Sequence record: MK047718.1
Source of the DNA: Escherichia phage p000y
DNA: 64,000 nucleotides
Reading direction: 5' to 3' (one strand)
Shown in pieces: positions 3,664 to 64,000 of this stretch. Position numbers and translations under genes: made by a program. A model generated the notes under the pieces. That model did not search any database, was not told where the DNA came from, and was given only the letters and a program-made list of their open reading frames with translations. Numbering within the stretch: the first letter of the stretch is position 1; each line of letters begins with the position of its first letter.

Positions 3664-3698
3664 TTTACATCTTGGTAGGACTATGTTATAGTAGTCCT
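3663..3698 (+). promoter_or_regulatory. Early promoter with embedded stem-loop (PeSL-like cassette)
   Basis: GTTTAC 3663-3668, TATAGT 3687-3692; 8-bp inverted repeat TAGGACTA/TAGTCCTA spans the -10. Confidence 0.55.
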
Positions 3699-6425: not shown

Positions 6426-7406
6426 ATGTTCAACGTTCAAATCAAAAAAGGTATCTATCGTAATAACGAAATCTCTGGATCTTATGTCGCCACAAAGACA
6501 TGGTTCCCAGCAAAGCTTAATCCTGAATGTTCCCACTTAGGTGATGGTAAAATTTTCGTTATGATTGATGGTTCTGAACGTGGAGTATGGGTCTTCAAAT
6601 CAGACATCGTAATGGAAGGAGTTGAGACATCACCAGTTGCAGTTGTTGAAAGCACTGAAGATATGAAAACTCGTATCAACAAACGCTTTAAAGTAATGAA
6701 CATGATGACGAATGGCATTATCGATGGCAAAATTCGTTCACTCATCATTTCAGGTGCAGCCGGTATTGGTAAGACGTATTCTCTGGATAAAGCACTTAAT
6801 AATGCTAATGATAATGGTTTCATCAAATACAAAAGCATTAATGGTAAAATCTCTGGTATCGGCCTTTACGAACAACTTTGGCTCAACCGTGATGCAGACA
6901 GCGTTCTCTTAATCGACGATGTTGATGTATTCTCTGATATGGATATCTTGAACCTTCTTAAAGCAGCATTAGATACCGGAGATAAACGCAAAGTTTGTTG
7001 GAGCACTGCGTCATCTTATCTTGATGATAAGGGTATTGATAAAGAATTTGAGTTTGAAGGTACTATCGTTTTCATTACAAACGTTGATATCGATAAAGAG
7101 TTAGAACGTGGTTCGAAACTTGCCCCACACCTTCAAGCTTTAGTATCTCGTTCAGTGTATCTCGACCTTGGAGTACACTCTAATGAAGAGATTATGGTTC
7201 GAGTTGAAGACGTAATATTATCTACTGACATGATGCAGAAACGTGGTCTGACTGATGCTGAAACGTACAAAGCATTGTCCTGGATGAAGGCTAACGTATC
7301 TCGTCTTCGCAATGTATCATTACGTACGGCTCTTTATGTAGCAGATTTTATTTCAACTGATAAAGATGGTTGGGAGGAAATCTCCGAAGTAACTTTACTG
7401 AAATAA
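6426..7406 (+). CDS. AAA+/P-loop ATPase, about 326 aa
   Basis: Walker A GAAGIGKT and Walker B LLIDDVD; start placed at ATG 6426 with RBS GGAG (the track ORF starts at 6405). Confidence 0.55.
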   Translation: MFNVQIKKGIYRNNEISGSYVATKTWFPAKLNPECSHLGDGKIFVMIDGSERGVWVFKSDIVMEGVETSPVAVVESTEDMKTRINKRFKVMNMMTNGIIDGKIRSLIISGAAGIGKTYSLDKALNNANDNGFIKYKSINGKISGIGLYEQLWLNRDADSVLLIDDVDVFSDMDILNLLKAALDTGDKRKVCWSTASSYLDDKGIDKEFEFEGTIVFITNVDIDKELERGSKLAPHLQALVSRSVYLDLGVHSNEEIMVRVEDVILSTDMMQKRGLTDAETYKALSWMKANVSRLRNVSLRTALYVADFISTDKDGWEEISEVTLLK

Positions 7407-7889: not shown

Positions 7890-8417
7890 ATGAACGCTAA
7901 AGATATTTTCAACCTGGTAAATTATAACGACGGTAAATTTAAATCTGAAGCACAAAGCAAGTTCTTTAACGATGTTGCTTATGGTAACGAGATTACCGTG
8001 GATGGAGGTCAGATTTTCAAATCTCGCTGGAATTGGATTGTTATCATCGATTCAGTTGGAATTGTGGAAGTCTACAAAAACACTAACAAAAAACGTACAT
8101 TATTCTGGTCTCGTGAAACTAACGAGCAGTACAAAAAGGATAAAGCATCTCGTTTATCCAAAGTAACCCAGGAAGATATCGACTTCATCAAGAAAGATAT
8201 CGAGATGTACGAAAATTTAATTGCTGAAGACCAGGCAGTACTCGATAAGTTTGATGAAATTAAAGCTTCTCGTGAAATCCCTGACTTCATGAAAGAAACA
8301 GTAAACGAACGATACGCTCTCACTTCAGAACGTATTGCAAACTACACAAAACAGAAAGCAGAACGTATTAGTACTCTTCGGAAATTTGAAGAACGTTTAA
8401 AGACGGTTCACGCATAA
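7890..8417 (+). CDS. Hypothetical protein, 175 aa
   Basis: RBS GGAGG upstream; C-terminal coiled-coil-like region. Confidence 0.45.
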   Translation: MNAKDIFNLVNYNDGKFKSEAQSKFFNDVAYGNEITVDGGQIFKSRWNWIVIIDSVGIVEVYKNTNKKRTLFWSRETNEQYKKDKASRLSKVTQEDIDFIKKDIEMYENLIAEDQAVLDKFDEIKASREIPDFMKETVNERYALTSERIANYTKQKAERISTLRKFEERLKTVHA

Positions 8418-8419
8418 AC

Positions 8420-8444
8420 GCTTTACCCAAGGACGGGTTATAAT
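8420..8444 (+). promoter_or_regulatory. Middle-type promoter (MotA-box-like GCTTTA plus TATAAT)
   Basis: GCTTTA 8420-8425, 13 nt, TATAAT 8439-8444; the spacer carries the CCAAGGACGG motif. Confidence 0.45.
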
Positions 8445-8479
8445 GGTTTTGAGTTCCAATTCAATCTGAGGAAATAGTT

Positions 8480-9475
8480 ATGAGCATTACATCTGATGCG
8501 ATAAAACATGAAATTAACGGTTTATGTGCTTCACAGATTAAAGTGTGGTTTAAAGACCATAATGATCGCAGAGCGCTTAATTATGAACGAATTGCTATCC
8601 AAGTTCATCAATTACTGGTTAGTAAATTTGATTTTCATATGCCGTCTGAAATCTATACTAATCTACCGCAAGCGCTTATTAAAGCGTGTAAAGGCTACGG
8701 AAAATCAATGGCTGATGGAATCTTCAGCGCGCTGAATAAACTTAACGTTCTGTCGATGATTAACTCTAACAATATCCTGCGTAATCTAGGACGTACTGAT
8801 TTGTTCGGTCGTGAACAGTGTAAAATGCCTTTGAAATGGATTGTTGCTCATCTTAACGAGAACCAAACACGTTTTATGGCCGTAACAGCACGTTTACAAA
8901 TGGGCCTAGATCGTCAGATGAACTTTAAAACTCATCCACGTTATTCAGGTTCAACTGACTTTTATAAATGTGAGCTTCAAAAGATTGCAGGCAAAACTGT
9001 CTTAGTAGTTCGTGTAACGTTTGAAGGACGTCGTCAAGGATATTTTGACCTAATCGGCTCTGGTCTCAAACATTGTGGATTTATCGACGAAGTTGATATC
9101 AAGCGAGACGGCACTGGATACCGTATTGGGTATGTTTGTACTCTTAAAGAAGAGATTTCAGGACCAGCACCAGGACTAAAAGACGTTAGATATAAAGACG
9201 AGCTAGTTGAAGAAATAAAAGAAGTTGAATACGATATCAACCAAGAAGATGCTCTTAAAGACCTTATTGACGAACTAAACCAAGACGTTATTCCGGTTCA
9301 GAAATTTGAATCAAAACATGCTGAGCAAATCAAATACTTTGAAGCTTTGATTAACGAACTTAATGTAACTATTCAACAGACTGACGATGAAATCTCACGA
9401 TTAGCAGGCTTAAATGGTAAAAATAAAACAGAACGAGCTAATCTTATTCAAGTAGTAAAACTTCTTAAGGAATGA
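8480..9475 (+). CDS. Hypothetical protein, 331 aa, with C-terminal coiled coil
   Basis: RBS GAGGAAA upstream; heptad-like C-terminus. Confidence 0.45.
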   Translation: MSITSDAIKHEINGLCASQIKVWFKDHNDRRALNYERIAIQVHQLLVSKFDFHMPSEIYTNLPQALIKACKGYGKSMADGIFSALNKLNVLSMINSNNILRNLGRTDLFGREQCKMPLKWIVAHLNENQTRFMAVTARLQMGLDRQMNFKTHPRYSGSTDFYKCELQKIAGKTVLVVRVTFEGRRQGYFDLIGSGLKHCGFIDEVDIKRDGTGYRIGYVCTLKEEISGPAPGLKDVRYKDELVEEIKEVEYDINQEDALKDLIDELNQDVIPVQKFESKHAEQIKYFEALINELNVTIQQTDDEISRLAGLNGKNKTERANLIQVVKLLKE

Positions 9476-9504
9476 TGTACAACCAAGGATGGTTGGAGTA
9501 TAAT
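9475..9504 (+). promoter_or_regulatory. Early promoter, copy of the repeated CAACCAAGGATGGTTGGAGTATAAT cassette
   Basis: ATGTAC -35, TATAAT 9499-9504; palindromic spacer CAACCA-AGGA-TGGTTG. Confidence 0.55.
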
Positions 9505-9530
9505 AAATTTTTCAACATGAGGAATATAAA

Positions 9531-10490
9531 ATGGCTTTTATTACACGTAGAGAACTTATCAAAGAATTTACCTCGAACGCATATACCCCAGGACCTAATC
9601 CTATCCGTATGCCTGTAAAGACTCCTGAAGAGATTGAGGAAATCTGTTCATATTATGGGATTACTTCTCGTAAGTTTACTCAATTTGAATGCGTTACTAA
9701 CACACCCGTTAAAGAGTTCATTAAAAATGGTGAGTTCAGCCGTTTATTAGCCAAACAGAAACTTCGTAATTTTTGTATCGGCGGTGAAGGACAATATTTC
9801 GCTAAACAGTTCCGAAATAACCTTAACAATCTGATGGCCATTGCTTCTCGTATTCGTCCTCAAGCAATTAACATGAAACATTTGAAATATACTTATGATA
9901 AGTTAGAAATCATGGTTATCAGTGAGAATGAGTTCACTCTTACATATAAACCTAAGAATGATAACGTTGCTCGTGTATTCCACCAAGCGTTGGAAGTTTT
10001 AGGTGATAATATCCACCAGATTAAAGCGATTTATTCTCGTGAGCTTAATATTATCAACCCTATCAAGAATAAGGGCCATATCGCTATCCAGGCTCGTGTA
10101 TCTATTGGTAAAAAGGTTCCTGCGCCGTGGTGGCACAAAGACTCTGAATACTATCAAAATCTTAAAAAGGAAAATGCAACGTTTGAAGCATCGCTTACTG
10201 GGACCCCAATTGAACAGGCCGAAGTCCTAAGTGCTTATTCTACTTCGGGTAAATCAATGTTTAAAGGTTTGCCAAATGTGTGCAAACTGTCTGCAGTAAA
10301 ACTAAATGTTTCTAATGACCTTCTTCCGGCCGAAGATTACCATTACAATCAAATCAAGGCCACTATGGACCAACTGTCTGTTGAACTTGACAAAGCACAA
10401 GCTAAGCTTCGTGATGCTCAACAAGTAGTTACCAATCTCCAGTTGCAGTACTCTAAACTTTTTAACGCAATGAATGCATTAAAATCATAA
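9531..10490 (+). CDS. Hypothetical protein, 319 aa, with C-terminal coiled coil
   Basis: RBS GAGGAA upstream; C-terminus ...QAKLRDAQQVVTNLQLQYSKL. Confidence 0.45.
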   Translation: MAFITRRELIKEFTSNAYTPGPNPIRMPVKTPEEIEEICSYYGITSRKFTQFECVTNTPVKEFIKNGEFSRLLAKQKLRNFCIGGEGQYFAKQFRNNLNNLMAIASRIRPQAINMKHLKYTYDKLEIMVISENEFTLTYKPKNDNVARVFHQALEVLGDNIHQIKAIYSRELNIINPIKNKGHIAIQARVSIGKKVPAPWWHKDSEYYQNLKKENATFEASLTGTPIEQAEVLSAYSTSGKSMFKGLPNVCKLSAVKLNVSNDLLPAEDYHYNQIKATMDQLSVELDKAQAKLRDAQQVVTNLQLQYSKLFNAMNALKS

Positions 10491-10494
10491 ATCA

Positions 10495-10524
10495 GTTTAC
10501 AACCAAGGATGGTTGGAGTATAAT
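10495..10524 (+). promoter_or_regulatory. Early promoter, second copy of the repeated cassette
   Basis: GTTTACAACCAAGGATGGTTGGAGTATAAT, identical to the 52491-52520 copy. Confidence 0.55.
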
Positions 10525-10552
10525 GAATCTATCTTAACGAGAGGAAAATATT

Positions 10553-11497
10553 ATGACACGTTCACATTACATTGATTATTTTGCAGGTCTTATCGCTAAT
10601 GTTCATGCCCAACGTGCTTCTGGTTCATTAGGATTTGATGTTCCACACCGAGATGTAGTAAGTGGTATTCTTCGCGATTTTGGTACATATACCGGCCAAG
10701 AAAATCATATCTGTAAAGATACTCAAAATGCGTATTCTCATTCATTAGGGACACTGCTTCAATGGTTCAAACGTTCTCGTTTATTATCTTCTACTGTAGC
10801 TCGCGATAACATTAAAAACTTTATGAAACCGAGCTTTATTAAATCTGTGACATCTAAAACCGATTTGGTTGAATTCACTATTGTTAATGATGTTAAAAAG
10901 ACTCATTTAGCTGATTGGTTATCTACCATTCCTGAAACTAAATTTGCTGATAAATTTGCTTGTGAATTCAATAACCAAGTGAATATGCTTTTTAAACATT
11001 CTCGTAAATTATTCACTGGCGGTGATGGTCGTACAAATAAAGTTCATGTTAAAGATTGGGTTACTGCAGTATTCAAACCAACCGGTAATGGTAACGCATC
11101 ATTATCAATTGATATCCAGGTTCCTTATTACTACTCACGTAATCTCGGTACCATGAAAGCCGAAGAAATTAAGAAGCACAATAAAACCGTTCGTTCGCTG
11201 TCTTATAAACTTCGTATGATGTTACAGACTATGGATGTTGTTGAAATGTTCGACGAAACCGAAGATAACGGTTCAATGTTATTCAGTTCTCGAATTAAAA
11301 TTAAACTGAAGAACCCTAATGTGTTTAAGCCTATTAAAGAACCTAAAGCAGAAAAGGTTGATATCATGGCTGAAGAACGTGAGTACCTCAAATCTCGTCT
11401 GAAAGAAGTCGAAGCCCAGATTGCAGAACAAACTAAATCGTTAAAAGCTCTGAATGCGAAAGCGGATGGTTTACGAAATGCCATTGAGGTGTTATAA
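10553..11497 (+). CDS. Hypothetical protein, 314 aa, with C-terminal coiled coil
   Basis: RBS GAGAGGAAA upstream; C-terminus ...LKEVEAQIAEQTKSLKALNAKADGLRNAIEVL. Confidence 0.45.
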   Translation: MTRSHYIDYFAGLIANVHAQRASGSLGFDVPHRDVVSGILRDFGTYTGQENHICKDTQNAYSHSLGTLLQWFKRSRLLSSTVARDNIKNFMKPSFIKSVTSKTDLVEFTIVNDVKKTHLADWLSTIPETKFADKFACEFNNQVNMLFKHSRKLFTGGDGRTNKVHVKDWVTAVFKPTGNGNASLSIDIQVPYYYSRNLGTMKAEEIKKHNKTVRSLSYKLRMMLQTMDVVEMFDETEDNGSMLFSSRIKIKLKNPNVFKPIKEPKAEKVDIMAEEREYLKSRLKEVEAQIAEQTKSLKALNAKADGLRNAIEVL

Positions 11498-18755: not shown

Positions 18756-18995
18756 GTGGCCCAAGAATTAGATTTTATCAAATTCAAAAAACACCTCGAC
18801 GTTAAAATTGGGGATTCAATTGTTAGGATTGAGTATGACATTTTAACAGATGCTATTACTGTTAGATGTGATGGAAATAGTTTCAGCTTCGATACAACCG
18901 AAAACAAATACCCAATCTATAAAGGCATCTTTGATATGGGTGTTGATATTACTCCGCGTGATACAAATTACTTACTTTTCATGCTTAAAAAATAG
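18756..18995 (+). CDS. Hypothetical protein, 79 aa (GTG start)
   Basis: RBS GAGGAAA upstream of GTG 18756. Confidence 0.4.
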   Translation: MAQELDFIKFKKHLDVKIGDSIVRIEYDILTDAITVRCDGNSFSFDTTENKYPIYKGIFDMGVDITPRDTNYLLFMLKK

Positions 18996-19030
18996 TATAC
19001 AAACTCTTGAGAGATGAGTATAATTCTCTC
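18995..19030 (+). promoter_or_regulatory. Early promoter with stem-loop (PeSL-like), near-duplicate of 63962-63996
   Basis: GTATAC -35, TATAAT 19019-19024; GAGAGA/TCTCTC inverted repeat. Confidence 0.55.
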
Positions 19031-19061
19031 GTTGGATAATAAAATAACCGAGGAAAATAAT

Positions 19062-30854: not shown

Positions 30855-30894
30855 TATAATGCCAAGGACGGCCAACTAATTAAATGAGAGAAAT

Positions 30895-40505: not shown

Positions 40506-40523
40506 AGGAGACTTCGGTCTCCT
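40506..40523 (+). terminator. UUCG-tetraloop hairpin after gene 41
   Basis: AGGAGAC-TTCG-GTCTCCT followed by TT. Confidence 0.5.
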
Positions 40524-40529
40524 TTCGGG

Positions 40530-40558
40530 GTTTACATCTTCCTCTAGGCATGATATGA
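40530..40558 (+). promoter_or_regulatory. Early promoter (GTTTAC, TATGAT)
   Basis: GTTTAC 40530-40535, 17-bp spacer, TATGAT 40553-40558. Confidence 0.5.
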
Positions 40559-40588
40559 TGAACTTACACCAACCAAGAGGAAAACATT

Positions 40589-52490: not shown

Positions 52491-52520
52491 GTTTACAACC
52501 AAGGATGGTTGGAGTATAAT
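52491..52520 (+). promoter_or_regulatory. Early promoter, third copy of the repeated cassette
   Basis: GTTTACAACCAAGGATGGTTGGAGTATAAT, identical to the 10495-10524 copy. Confidence 0.55.
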
Positions 52521-52550
52521 CTTTCTATCTTAACCAAACAGGAAAACATT

Positions 52551-53045
52551 ATGAATATCAATACCACGGCTACTTACATCCTGAAAGATGAAAAACAAAT
52601 CAACTGGTACGGTGCTTCAGTGCGAGCTTATGAAAAGTTTTGTGAAATTTTAGGTGCCACTCAAGGTAATAGTTTCACTATTGTTAACTTCATCAAACAA
52701 GTTGAAGGCCCTTGGTTATTCTTAGAAATTAAAAATTCATATGGTATAATTTCTACTACCGCCCTTCCAAGCACCGACTTTGAACTGTTGATTGAAGAAG
52801 TAGAACCCGTTAAAGATATCTGTATTGATATGGATATCGCTTGTATGTACGGTACTCTGATTAAGCCTATTGAGCCTACTGATTTGTTGTGTAAATATGT
52901 TTCAATTCGACGCCCATTCGCTGGTCCAGTAAATGGATGGGTAACTGACCAATGGATTGAAGACGGTGTTGAACTTCTGAACGTTGTTCATGCAGGTGAT
53001 TTTAGTGTAGTTCCACGTAGTGCTGTGGTTAATATCCTTAATTAA
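52551..53045 (+). CDS. Paralogue family member 1 (C-terminal VTDQWIEDG motif), 164 aa
   Basis: ATG 52551 with RBS AGGAAA; shares its C-terminal motif with the two following ORFs. Confidence 0.45.
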   Translation: MNINTTATYILKDEKQINWYGASVRAYEKFCEILGATQGNSFTIVNFIKQVEGPWLFLEIKNSYGIISTTALPSTDFELLIEEVEPVKDICIDMDIACMYGTLIKPIEPTDLLCKYVSIRRPFAGPVNGWVTDQWIEDGVELLNVVHAGDFSVVPRSAVVNILN

Positions 53046-53047
53046 TG

Positions 53048-53077
53048 TTGTACATCCAAGGACGGATGGAGTATAAT
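53048..53077 (+). promoter_or_regulatory. Early promoter, variant of the repeated cassette
   Basis: TTGTAC ... CCAAGGACGGATGGAG TATAAT. Confidence 0.5.
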
Positions 53078-53107
53078 GAATTCAACTTAAACAAAGAGAG
53101 AGAAATT

Positions 53108-53563
53108 ATGATTACTATTGGTGAAATTAAGCGTGTATCGTCTGCATCTCGTTCTAAAGCTGCAGGTCGTCTAGTTGAAGTGGTAGGACTTCGTACTAAT
53201 GGTACTGGTCGTGTTAAAGAAGTTAAAGTTCGAATCATTCCTAGTTCTGGAAAAACTGAAACTCAGTACGCTTACGTAAGTCCTAAATTCTTGGAAACTC
53301 ATGTGAGCGCTCATTTTGCTTCTACTGAACCTAATGTACAGTTCAAATGGGCCTTGTGTAAAGGTGTTGAATTCCAGACTGATAAAGAATTTGACTTCAT
53401 CGATGAATACGGTTATCCAAGCAAAACTGATACTATGTGTGGCTTCATTAGTGACCAATGGGTTGAAGATGGTGAAAAGTTATACAATATCGTATTCTTA
53501 GGTGACTTCCGAGTTGTTAAAGAATCTGAAATCACTCGCTATGTGTCTCCTCGTAAAGCTTAA
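53108..53563 (+). CDS. Paralogue family member 2 (FISDQWVEDG motif), 151 aa
   Basis: ATG 53108 with RBS AGAGAGAGAAA. Confidence 0.45.
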   Translation: MITIGEIKRVSSASRSKAAGRLVEVVGLRTNGTGRVKEVKVRIIPSSGKTETQYAYVSPKFLETHVSAHFASTEPNVQFKWALCKGVEFQTDKEFDFIDEYGYPSKTDTMCGFISDQWVEDGEKLYNIVFLGDFRVVKESEITRYVSPRKA

Positions 53564-63961: not shown

Positions 63962-63996
63962 TTGTACAAACTCTTGAGAGCAGAGTATAATGCTCT
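63962..63996 (+). promoter_or_regulatory. Early promoter with stem-loop, near-duplicate of 18995-19030
   Basis: TTGTAC -35, TATAAT 63986-63991; GAGAGC/GCTCTC inverted repeat. Confidence 0.5.
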
Positions 63997-64000
63997 CATG

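Follow-up and report, generated by a model that had tools for sequence, protein, structure and literature searches.

A near-identical early-promoter module with a hairpin in its spacer recurs in an RB69-group phage and probably serves as a recombination substrate

A promoter module repeated between unrelated genes

We analysed a stretch of 64,000 nucleotides from Escherichia phage p000y (MK047718.1; this whole stretch is called the window below) and found that a promoter module of about 30 bp recurs in it, which very probably works both as an early promoter and as a substrate for recombination between gene cassettes. The module is represented by the 30-mer GTTTACAACCAAGGATGGTTGGAGTATAAT. It occurs exactly at 10495-10524 and 52491-52520, as an earlier note on this DNA had stated, with two mismatches at 9475-9504 (ATGTAC for GTTTAC, a difference confined to the -35 as that note had it) and as a variant at 53048. 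No copy of such a 30-mer is expected by chance (100 shuffles). The inverted repeat CAACCA-AGGA-TGGTTG that the note had described in the spacer is present in the 30-mer, and the sequence CCAAGGAYGG is found six times in the window, always on the + strand (8427, 9483, 10503, 30862, 52499 and 53056), against 0.03 expected. Three more variants had been proposed. The one at 53054-53077 proved to be a further copy of early type (copy 4 in Table 1), whereas those at 8426-8444 and 30861-30875 did not stand as -35/-10 promoters: the former has the layout of a MotA box followed by a -10 and the latter is probably a chance match.

Every copy starts 0-5 nt past the stop codon of an upstream gene on the + strand and is followed, 26-35 nt past TATAAT, by a ribosome-binding site (RBS) and an ATG. 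The early-type copies each occupy an intergenic gap of 55-62 bp and are co-oriented with the genes. Since the similarity between copies is limited to 27-50 bp and the proteins flanking them are unrelated to one another in BLASTP comparisons, the regulatory module alone is repeated and not the genes, which are of unknown function or MotB-like. Tandem gene duplication was considered as the source of the repeat and rejected, because nrdC.6, nrdC.5 and nrdC.3 are mutually unrelated; among the genes of the nrdC cluster, BLASTP gave a weak similarity only for T4 nrdC.4 and T4 nrdC.3.

The window falls within Mosigvirus (the RB69 group), with about 97% identity in megablast to ST0, to the O157 typing phages 3, 6 and 13 and to others; T4 matches it piecewise, at merely 66-94% identity. 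The + strand of the window corresponds to the T4 minus strand, the main strand of early transcription. Along it the regB/vs region is followed by the nrdC cluster, genes 55 and 47-43, uvsX, 41, 61, dda, dexA, motB, 39 and rIIA, and then by rIIB/denB. The whole window contains no tRNA and gives no Rfam match at the gathering score.

Table 1. Members of the module in the window, the genes between them, and related hairpins in other phages
Feature	Position	Strand	Sequence elements	Predicted transcription start	RB69 counterpart
Copy 1, predicted early promoter of nrdC.5-like gene	9475-9504	+	-35 TGTACA 9476-9481, overlapping TGA stop of nrdC.6-like gene; hairpin CAACCA-AGGA-TGGTTG 9480-9495; GGAG 9495-9498; -10 TATAAT 9499-9504	about 9511	Pe:52042
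nrdC.5-like gene, DUF7235, 319 aa; cassette between copies 1 and 2	9531-10490	+			
Copy 2, predicted early promoter of nrdC.3-like gene	10495-10524	+	-35 TTTACA 10496-10501; hairpin 10500-10515; -10 10519-10524	about 10531	Pe:51019
Copy 3, predicted early promoter between dexA and motB.1-like gene	52491-52520	+	-35 52492-52497; hairpin 52496-52511; -10 52515-52520	about 52527	Pe:8947
motB.1-like gene, 164 aa; cassette between copies 3 and 4	52551-53045	+			
Copy 4, variant, upstream of MotB-like gene (53108-53563)	53048-53077	+	TGTACA 53049-53054; hairpin CATCC-AAGGAC-GGATG 53053-53068; -10 53072-53077		Pe:8387
Middle-promoter-type member, upstream of nrdC.6-like gene	8417-8444	+	aaaCGCTTTAc (GCTTTA 8420-8425); hairpin ACCC-AAGGAC-GGGT 8425-8438; -10 TATAAT 8439-8444		
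CCAAGGAYGG match just past gene 43 stop codon, not counted as a family member	30862-30871	+	CCAAGGACGG		
T4, promoter upstream of rIIA.1			hairpin TACCACA-AGGA-TGTGGTA		
T4, promoter upstream of nrdC.4			hairpin CCACA-AGGA-TGTGG		
T4, promoter upstream of nrdC.3			hairpin AGCCA-AGGA-TGGCT; late-like TATAAAT		
VR26 and VR25 (Gaprivervirus)			hairpin CTTCCA-AGGA-TGGAGG		
VR26, middle-type			hairpin TATCA-AGGA-TGATA		
Predicted candidate CsrA-binding RNAs			CAACCAAGGAUGGUUG and T4 CCACAAGGAUGUGG		

The earlier note had proposed a genome-wide motif search in related phages. When it was run with a few mismatches allowed, the 30-mer was present in 215 phage records, with two to four copies per Mosigvirus genome and a single copy at 90-93% identity in Dhakavirus phages (JS98, JS10, IME08 and others). 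A census of the whole RB69 genome gave three copies with the exact core, the variant at 8371 and two more promoters with a spacer hairpin, at 72544 and 139239. In T4 there are four spacer-hairpin promoters, namely the three listed in Table 1 and PnrdC.7.

The copies resemble T4-type early promoters

The four early-type copies combine TTTACA or TGTACA, a 17-bp spacer and TATAAT (9476-9504, 10496-10524, 52492-52520 and 53049-53077). With scores of 11/12 and 10/12 against the sigma-70 consensus, they are the highest-scoring sites of their regions. Nolan et al. (2006, PMC1524935) predicted 58 early promoters (Pe) in RB69, four of which are the counterparts of our copies (Table 1), and the GenBank record of phage NBG1 carries a 'promoter' feature exactly on the dexA-copy element (copy 3). 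The copies have in common with the T4 Pe and the RB69 predictions of that study a GTTTAC-type -35, the 17-bp spacer, TATAAT, an upstream region rich in A and a location 5' of early genes, and they differ from the T4 Pe in having GAG in place of the TGn extended -10. On these grounds the claim that the repeats are promoter cassettes is supported, and the copies are predicted to form one sequence sub-family of the T4-type early promoters that depend on host sigma-70. Host RNA polymerase with sigma-70 would start about 7 nt past each TATAAT early in infection (near 53084 for copy 4), and each copy would drive its downstream gene, that is nrdC.5, nrdC.3, motB.1 or the MotB paralogue.

The promoters themselves had already been predicted in RB69. 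The spacer hairpin and the near-identity of the copies are absent from that prediction paper, which makes no mention of a hairpin, a palindrome, an inverted repeat or copies that are nearly identical (PMC1524935). Promoter features are also absent from the T4 GenBank records NC_000866 and AF158101, and literature searches on nrdC.4 promoters and on the mapping of T4 transcription starts found nothing relevant.

Separately, copies 2 and 3 have TCTATCTTAAC in common in the region predicted to be transcribed first (10525-10538 and 52521-52534), and (C/T)CTATC stands at the corresponding place in many other early promoters. In copy 3, pairing of this segment with AAGGAUGG offers a structure alternative to the hairpin.

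Gene-cassette junctions lie within the repeats

Alignment of the flanking genes in related phages, which the earlier note had also proposed, revealed that nrdC.5 is absent from phages G2469, F2 and JM10 and motB.1 from PTE-Eco05. In G2469 the order is nrdC.6, promoter, nrdC.3, and nrdC.5 is absent. The single promoter that remains is a hybrid, its upstream flank and TGTACA -35 being those of the copy at 9475 and everything past TATAAT (gaatttatcttaacgagaggaaaatattATGacacg...) being that of the copy at 10495; the exchange point therefore lies within the common ACAACCAAGGATGGTTGGAGTATAAT. Among the matches listed, F2 and JM10 have 67% coverage of the region in two pieces spanning 2004 bp, a deletion as in G2469. 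The gene is kept in 131 of about 153 Mosigvirus records, as judged by a single match covering at least 80% of window positions 8480-11497. Loss of nrdC.5 is the likelier direction of the change, because T4 has a distant nrdC.5 (25% identity). In PTE-Eco05, which is without motB.1, the promoter matches the 52491 type up to and including TATAAT and the 53048 type thereafter, with the junction inside the common TGGAGTATAAT.

Distant copies also bear traces of exchange. The nrdC.3 and dexA copies of RB69 have 48 identical bp, including ctttctatctta past the -10, compared with 32 in the window, and the nrdC.3 copy of the window and of G2469 reads gaat(c/t)tatctta where RB69 has ctttctatctta. The nrdC.3 copy of RB69 thus appears to have been converted by the dexA copy, 42 kb away, which is a signature of gene conversion. 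The two natural and precise deletions with junctions in the repeat, together with this signature, bear out the suggestion that such repeats can drive the exchange of gene cassettes.

The gene that follows the promoter varies between genera: T4 has nrdC.5-P-nrdC.4-P-nrdC.3 (P being the promoter), RB69 and the window have nrdC.5-P-nrdC.3, and JS98 has orf86-P-nrdC.4. The CATCC...GGATG variant stands before nrdC.4 in JS98 and before the motB paralogue in the window. We also observed that nrdC.3 (10553-11497 in the window) and nrdC.4 resemble distant paralogues, both starting with MTR... and T4 nrdC.4 matching the nrdC.3 of the window with E = 8.5e-5. When T4, JS98 and the window are compared, the two genes occur alternately or jointly depending on the genus, always behind an AGGA-hairpin promoter.

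Because the 27-50 bp module recurs in direct orientation, homologous recombination of the phage could use it as portable homology. The recombination machinery would use this short identity for unequal exchange and for conversion: unequal exchange between neighbouring copies would remove or add the intervening gene and one promoter, while conversion among distant copies would maintain their near-identity. Two other features were examined in this connection and set aside. The annotation 'direct repeat ... StbAB' in phage ATK48 refers to an unrelated 11-bp repeat within nrdC.6. The repeat is likewise not the cause of the difference of about 315 bp in length between the window and ST0-type phages, which sits after nrdC; the ST0 record has an additional gene of about 300 bp right after nrdC (positions 6469-6765) that the window lacks (about 12470), and no copy of the repeat adjoins this indel.

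By analogy, the module works like the promoter-early stem-loop (PeSL) regulatory cassettes described in RB49/phi1, T4/PST and KVP40/nt-1 (Arbiol 2010, PMC2839356; Comeau 2014, PMC4122927), which are shuffled as modules, with the stem-loop placed differently. In both, a strong sigma-70-like early promoter, a stem-loop, an RBS and an ATG make up a short module that is repeated; both cluster in hyperplastic early regions and flank nonessential genes; in both, indel junctions between related phages fall inside the module (here those of nrdC.5 in G2469 and motB.1 in PTE-Eco05); and middle-promoter versions exist in both, called PmSL in the PeSL system. The present stem-loop, however, is located between the -35 and the -10, whereas theirs precedes the promoter. 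A U-run is missing from it, its AGGA loop is sequence-specific, and termination of transcription by it is unlikely. The analysis in those PeSL papers did not include RB69-like phages (PMC2839356, PMC4122927). The deletions and the conversion signature provide natural examples, at the level of base pairs, of how accessory genes are gained and lost in the RB69 group via tiny repeated promoter modules, extend the PeSL model to a genus where it was previously unexamined, and indicate that an upstream terminator stem-loop is not required for such exchange. They also predict deletion hot spots in therapeutic RB69-like phages.

Some points weigh against this combined reading of the module as promoter and recombination substrate. 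What the copies do not have is a TGn extended -10, an element usual in T4 early promoters and present in most of the other early promoters in the window, in RB69 and in T4. The case for their activity in this phage draws on sequence, on earlier predictions and on the T4 counterparts. At the junction in PTE-Eco05 the homology is just about 11 bp, and what the deletions reveal is the place of the exchange rather than the enzymes behind it.

A conserved hairpin in the promoter spacer

Every CAAGGAYG in the compared genomes was collected and sorted by context only, which gave 16 distinct sites in a promoter context and 20 elsewhere. Beyond the fixed C-G pair the stem extends by 2-6 bp at the promoter-context sites (by 0 at one of them) compared with 0-2 bp at the 20 others (Mann-Whitney p = 4.6e-7). 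In an alignment of the 16 sequences, 85.4% of the cells of a six-pair helix are paired against 60.2% in shuffles (0/500), and the covariation score is 0.568 against 0.142 in shuffles (0/500), with slid controls at or below 0.20. Four pairs of the helix change on both sides, one of them appearing as AU, UA, CG and GC. A scan of IMG/VR for TTTAC..CAAGGATG..TATAAT, which served as an external control, found a 17-bp spacer with stems of 4-7 bp solely in T4-like contigs; nearly all other matches had stems of 2-3 bp, as chance predicts. In Tequatrovirus, Mosigvirus, Dhakavirus and Gaprivervirus alike the sequence CAAGGAYG does not vary, while the flanking proteins have diverged to 25-57% identity. 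The hairpin is present in early, middle and late-like promoter contexts, and its AGGA stands 3 to 10 nt from the -10, depending on the member.

Arms that vary around a fixed asymmetric centre, at a position that shifts, disfavour both a dimeric operator and a contact with RNA polymerase. They favour a single-strand element with a sequence-specific loop, probably RNA and carried on read-through transcripts; in our estimate the chances for and against a role of the hairpin at the RNA level are evenly balanced. Transcripts from each copy's own promoter would be without the hairpin because they would start downstream of it, and it would act on RNA reading through from upstream promoters, with processing, stability or protein binding as possible roles. 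Its CAAGGAYG core is kept in four genera and in three classes of promoter, although the proteins encoded next to it have become almost unrecognisably different, and the hairpin is a candidate for an undescribed post-transcriptional signal in phages that have been studied very thoroughly. The reading of AUGGUUGGAGUAUAA as a mini-ORF (open reading frame) was dropped, its AUG being ACG in several members.

A more specific version of this RNA role can be put forward tentatively, although we consider it unlikely as a whole: the AGGA-loop hairpin would be a distinct conserved RNA element of Tevenvirinae housed in the promoter spacer, which may be the only free sequence in these very short intergenic gaps. 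It would either recruit a factor that binds GGA loops, host CsrA being the best match by sequence, or act with RegB/S1 at GGAG to set the 3' end and the stability of the upstream message. If so, the read-through and promoter-proximal mRNAs of one gene would be handled differently. The consensus obtained for CsrA/RsmA by SELEX is RUACARGGAUGU, with GGA in a hairpin loop and ACA 100% conserved (PMC4347634). All members are predicted to have GGA in a short hairpin's loop, ACARGGAUGU is found exactly in the T4 early members CCACAAGGAUGUGG, and a second GGA often lies in the RBS 35-40 nt downstream. The copies of the window, in contrast, have CCA for ACA and so match the consensus in part only, and the RBS of the gene behind copy 4 is without a GGA. 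Literature searches found no paper linking CsrA to T4 or to T4 intergenic hairpins.

For RegB/S1, whose cleavage site consensus is GG*AGRAYARAA (PMC3014915), the likeness consists of the GGAG directly after the hairpin in early-type copies (GGAGUAUAAU) and of the RegB encoded by this phage family; the extended consensus, however, is matched only partly, and the middle-type members are without GGAG. If GGAG were cleaved, the upstream mRNA would have a hairpin at its end that protects it. Literature searches found nothing on the reading of these hairpins by RegB/S1.

Several observations tell against a role in RNA. The hairpin is weak (-5 to -8 kcal/mol, with stems of 4-8 bp), and contexts of 91 nt fold no better than shuffles (z near 0), though the hairpin is part of most minimum-energy folds. 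Evidence on the strand is mixed, three G.U pairs favouring the top strand and five A.C closing pairs being G.U on the opposite one. The aligned sequences are related, so that the shuffle statistics overstate their independence, and this relatedness is, with templated quasi-palindrome mutation, a caveat on the covariation. The first description of templated mutation in imperfect palindromes came from T4. Such mutation could, along with shared descent and homogenisation by gene conversion, have kept the arms complementary in a hairpin that has no function, and the conversion signature between copies and the unremarkable folding energies agree with such an origin. We nevertheless regard a functionless hairpin as unlikely, given that CAAGGAYG has stayed invariant over four genera despite the divergence of the flanking proteins, that the core has persisted where the class of promoter or its own place with respect to the -10 has changed, and that the same 8-mer in coding DNA has no stems.

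The hairpin lies 4-13 nt past the upstream stop codon, where a classic PeSL stem-loop could insulate each cassette from upstream transcription as a terminator or attenuator. The PeSL stem-loops of RB49 do terminate transcription, and RB69-type early promoters generally embed hairpins. Here, however, the short and weak stems are not followed by a U-run, and a terminator scan detects none on the + strand at or upstream of any copy, the upstream terminator being a defining feature of PeSL and described as preceding the promoter. A genuine terminator-plus-promoter in the same window, at 40507-40560, looks different. A role as terminator is thus distinctly unlikely, and the RNA element acting on read-through transcripts is preferred to it.

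The earlier note had suggested that the palindrome may be a regulator binding site. In one reading it would be an operator through which a dimeric DNA-binding protein of phage or host would switch these promoters together. A 6-4-6 inverted repeat in the spacer does occupy the classic operator position, the motif is common to co-located accessory genes, and the shut-off of T4 early promoters is incompletely understood. Such an operator should keep symmetric half-sites at a fixed place in the promoter. The pattern found is the reverse: half-sites (CAACCA, CATCC, CCACA, AGCCA, CACCA, CTTCCA, TATACCA and TATCA) differ yet stay complementary, covarying around an invariant and asymmetric AGGA centre, and over early, middle and late-like contexts the repeat moves by up to 7 nt with respect to the -10. 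We therefore consider the dimeric operator very unlikely and did not retain it. Finally, it is extremely improbable that, in the absence of any exchange among them, the copies became identical through convergent selection for maximal promoter strength: their -35 and -10 hexamers are near consensus, but the 17-bp spacer, where sigma-70 RNA polymerase does not read individual bases, is identical in three copies, identity runs 10-15 bp past the hexamers in some pairs and differs in this respect between RB69 and the window, hybrid junctions exist, and most other early promoters of the genome have different spacers.

A middle-promoter-type member and a doubtful site

The member at 8427 has aaaCGCTTTAc 13 bp before its TATAAT, in agreement with the MotA box ((a/t)(a/t)(a/t)TGCTTtA near -30, 11-13 bp before the -10), and GCTTTATACCAAGGATGGTATAAT is found at the corresponding position in T4 and JS98. 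Its T4 counterpart is PnrdC.7, a mapped MotA-dependent middle promoter with its start site at 53325 (Hinton 2010, PMC2988021); counted on the T4 sequence, this start lies 7 nt past the TATAAT. The 8427 member and its counterparts in JS98 and VR26 have the same MotA box, spacing and -10 as PnrdC.7 (PMC2988021) and a hairpin core reading CCAAGGAYGG or CAAGGATG. The difference is that nrdC.7 has been relocated in RB69-like phages, so that the promoter now stands before nrdC.6. The counterpart of this site is not among the RB69 middle promoters listed by Nolan (PMC1524935). We propose that the 8427 relative of the module was re-tooled into a middle promoter, whose dependence on MotA in this phage is predicted, with a start near 8451.

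The match at 30862, on the other hand, was dropped as a member of the family. A TATAAT overlapping the gene 43 stop codon precedes it, its stem has 3 bp only, and it is not conserved, RB69 and G2469 reading TCATGGACGG at the equivalent position. The match is probably due to chance or degenerate. After gene 43 of JS98 (positions ~27240-27190, minus strand) we noticed an early-type promoter with the spacer TACCAC-ATGGAAC-GTGGTA, which has GGA in a different loop. This hints that the presence of GGA in the loop of a spacer hairpin may be a more general rule.

Other promoter structures

A second family of near-identical promoters was observed, with the sequence T(A/G)TACA-aactcttgagag(at/ca)gag-TATAAT-(t/g)ctctc, at 18995-19031 and 63962-63998 in the window and at 164984, 136649, 72031 and 42477 in RB69. 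The -10 is enclosed by a stem that covaries from copy to copy (GAGAGA...TCTCTC and GAGAGC...GCTCTC), and GAG takes the place of TGn before the -10, as in the AGGA-hairpin family.

In most RB69-type early promoters the -10 forms the centre of a strong inverted repeat, GATAGGACTATgttataGTAGTCCTATC being one instance. The -10 hexamers at 3687, 6382, 7857, 40987, 42300, 63216 and 63725 of the window are placed in such repeats, which also occur genome-wide in RB69. From the spacer to +14, RB69-type early promoters have a mean folding z of -2.9, compared with 0.06 for random windows (p = 8e-9); the -10-centred folding signal is weaker in T4 early promoters (p = 0.008). The T4-type promoter literature that we consulted makes no mention of these inverted repeats in RB69. 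Lastly, the region 40507-40560 of the window has a true PeSL layout, in which the terminator GGAGACttcgGTCTCC and a T-run are followed by TTTACA...TATGAT upstream of an ORF of 124 aa.

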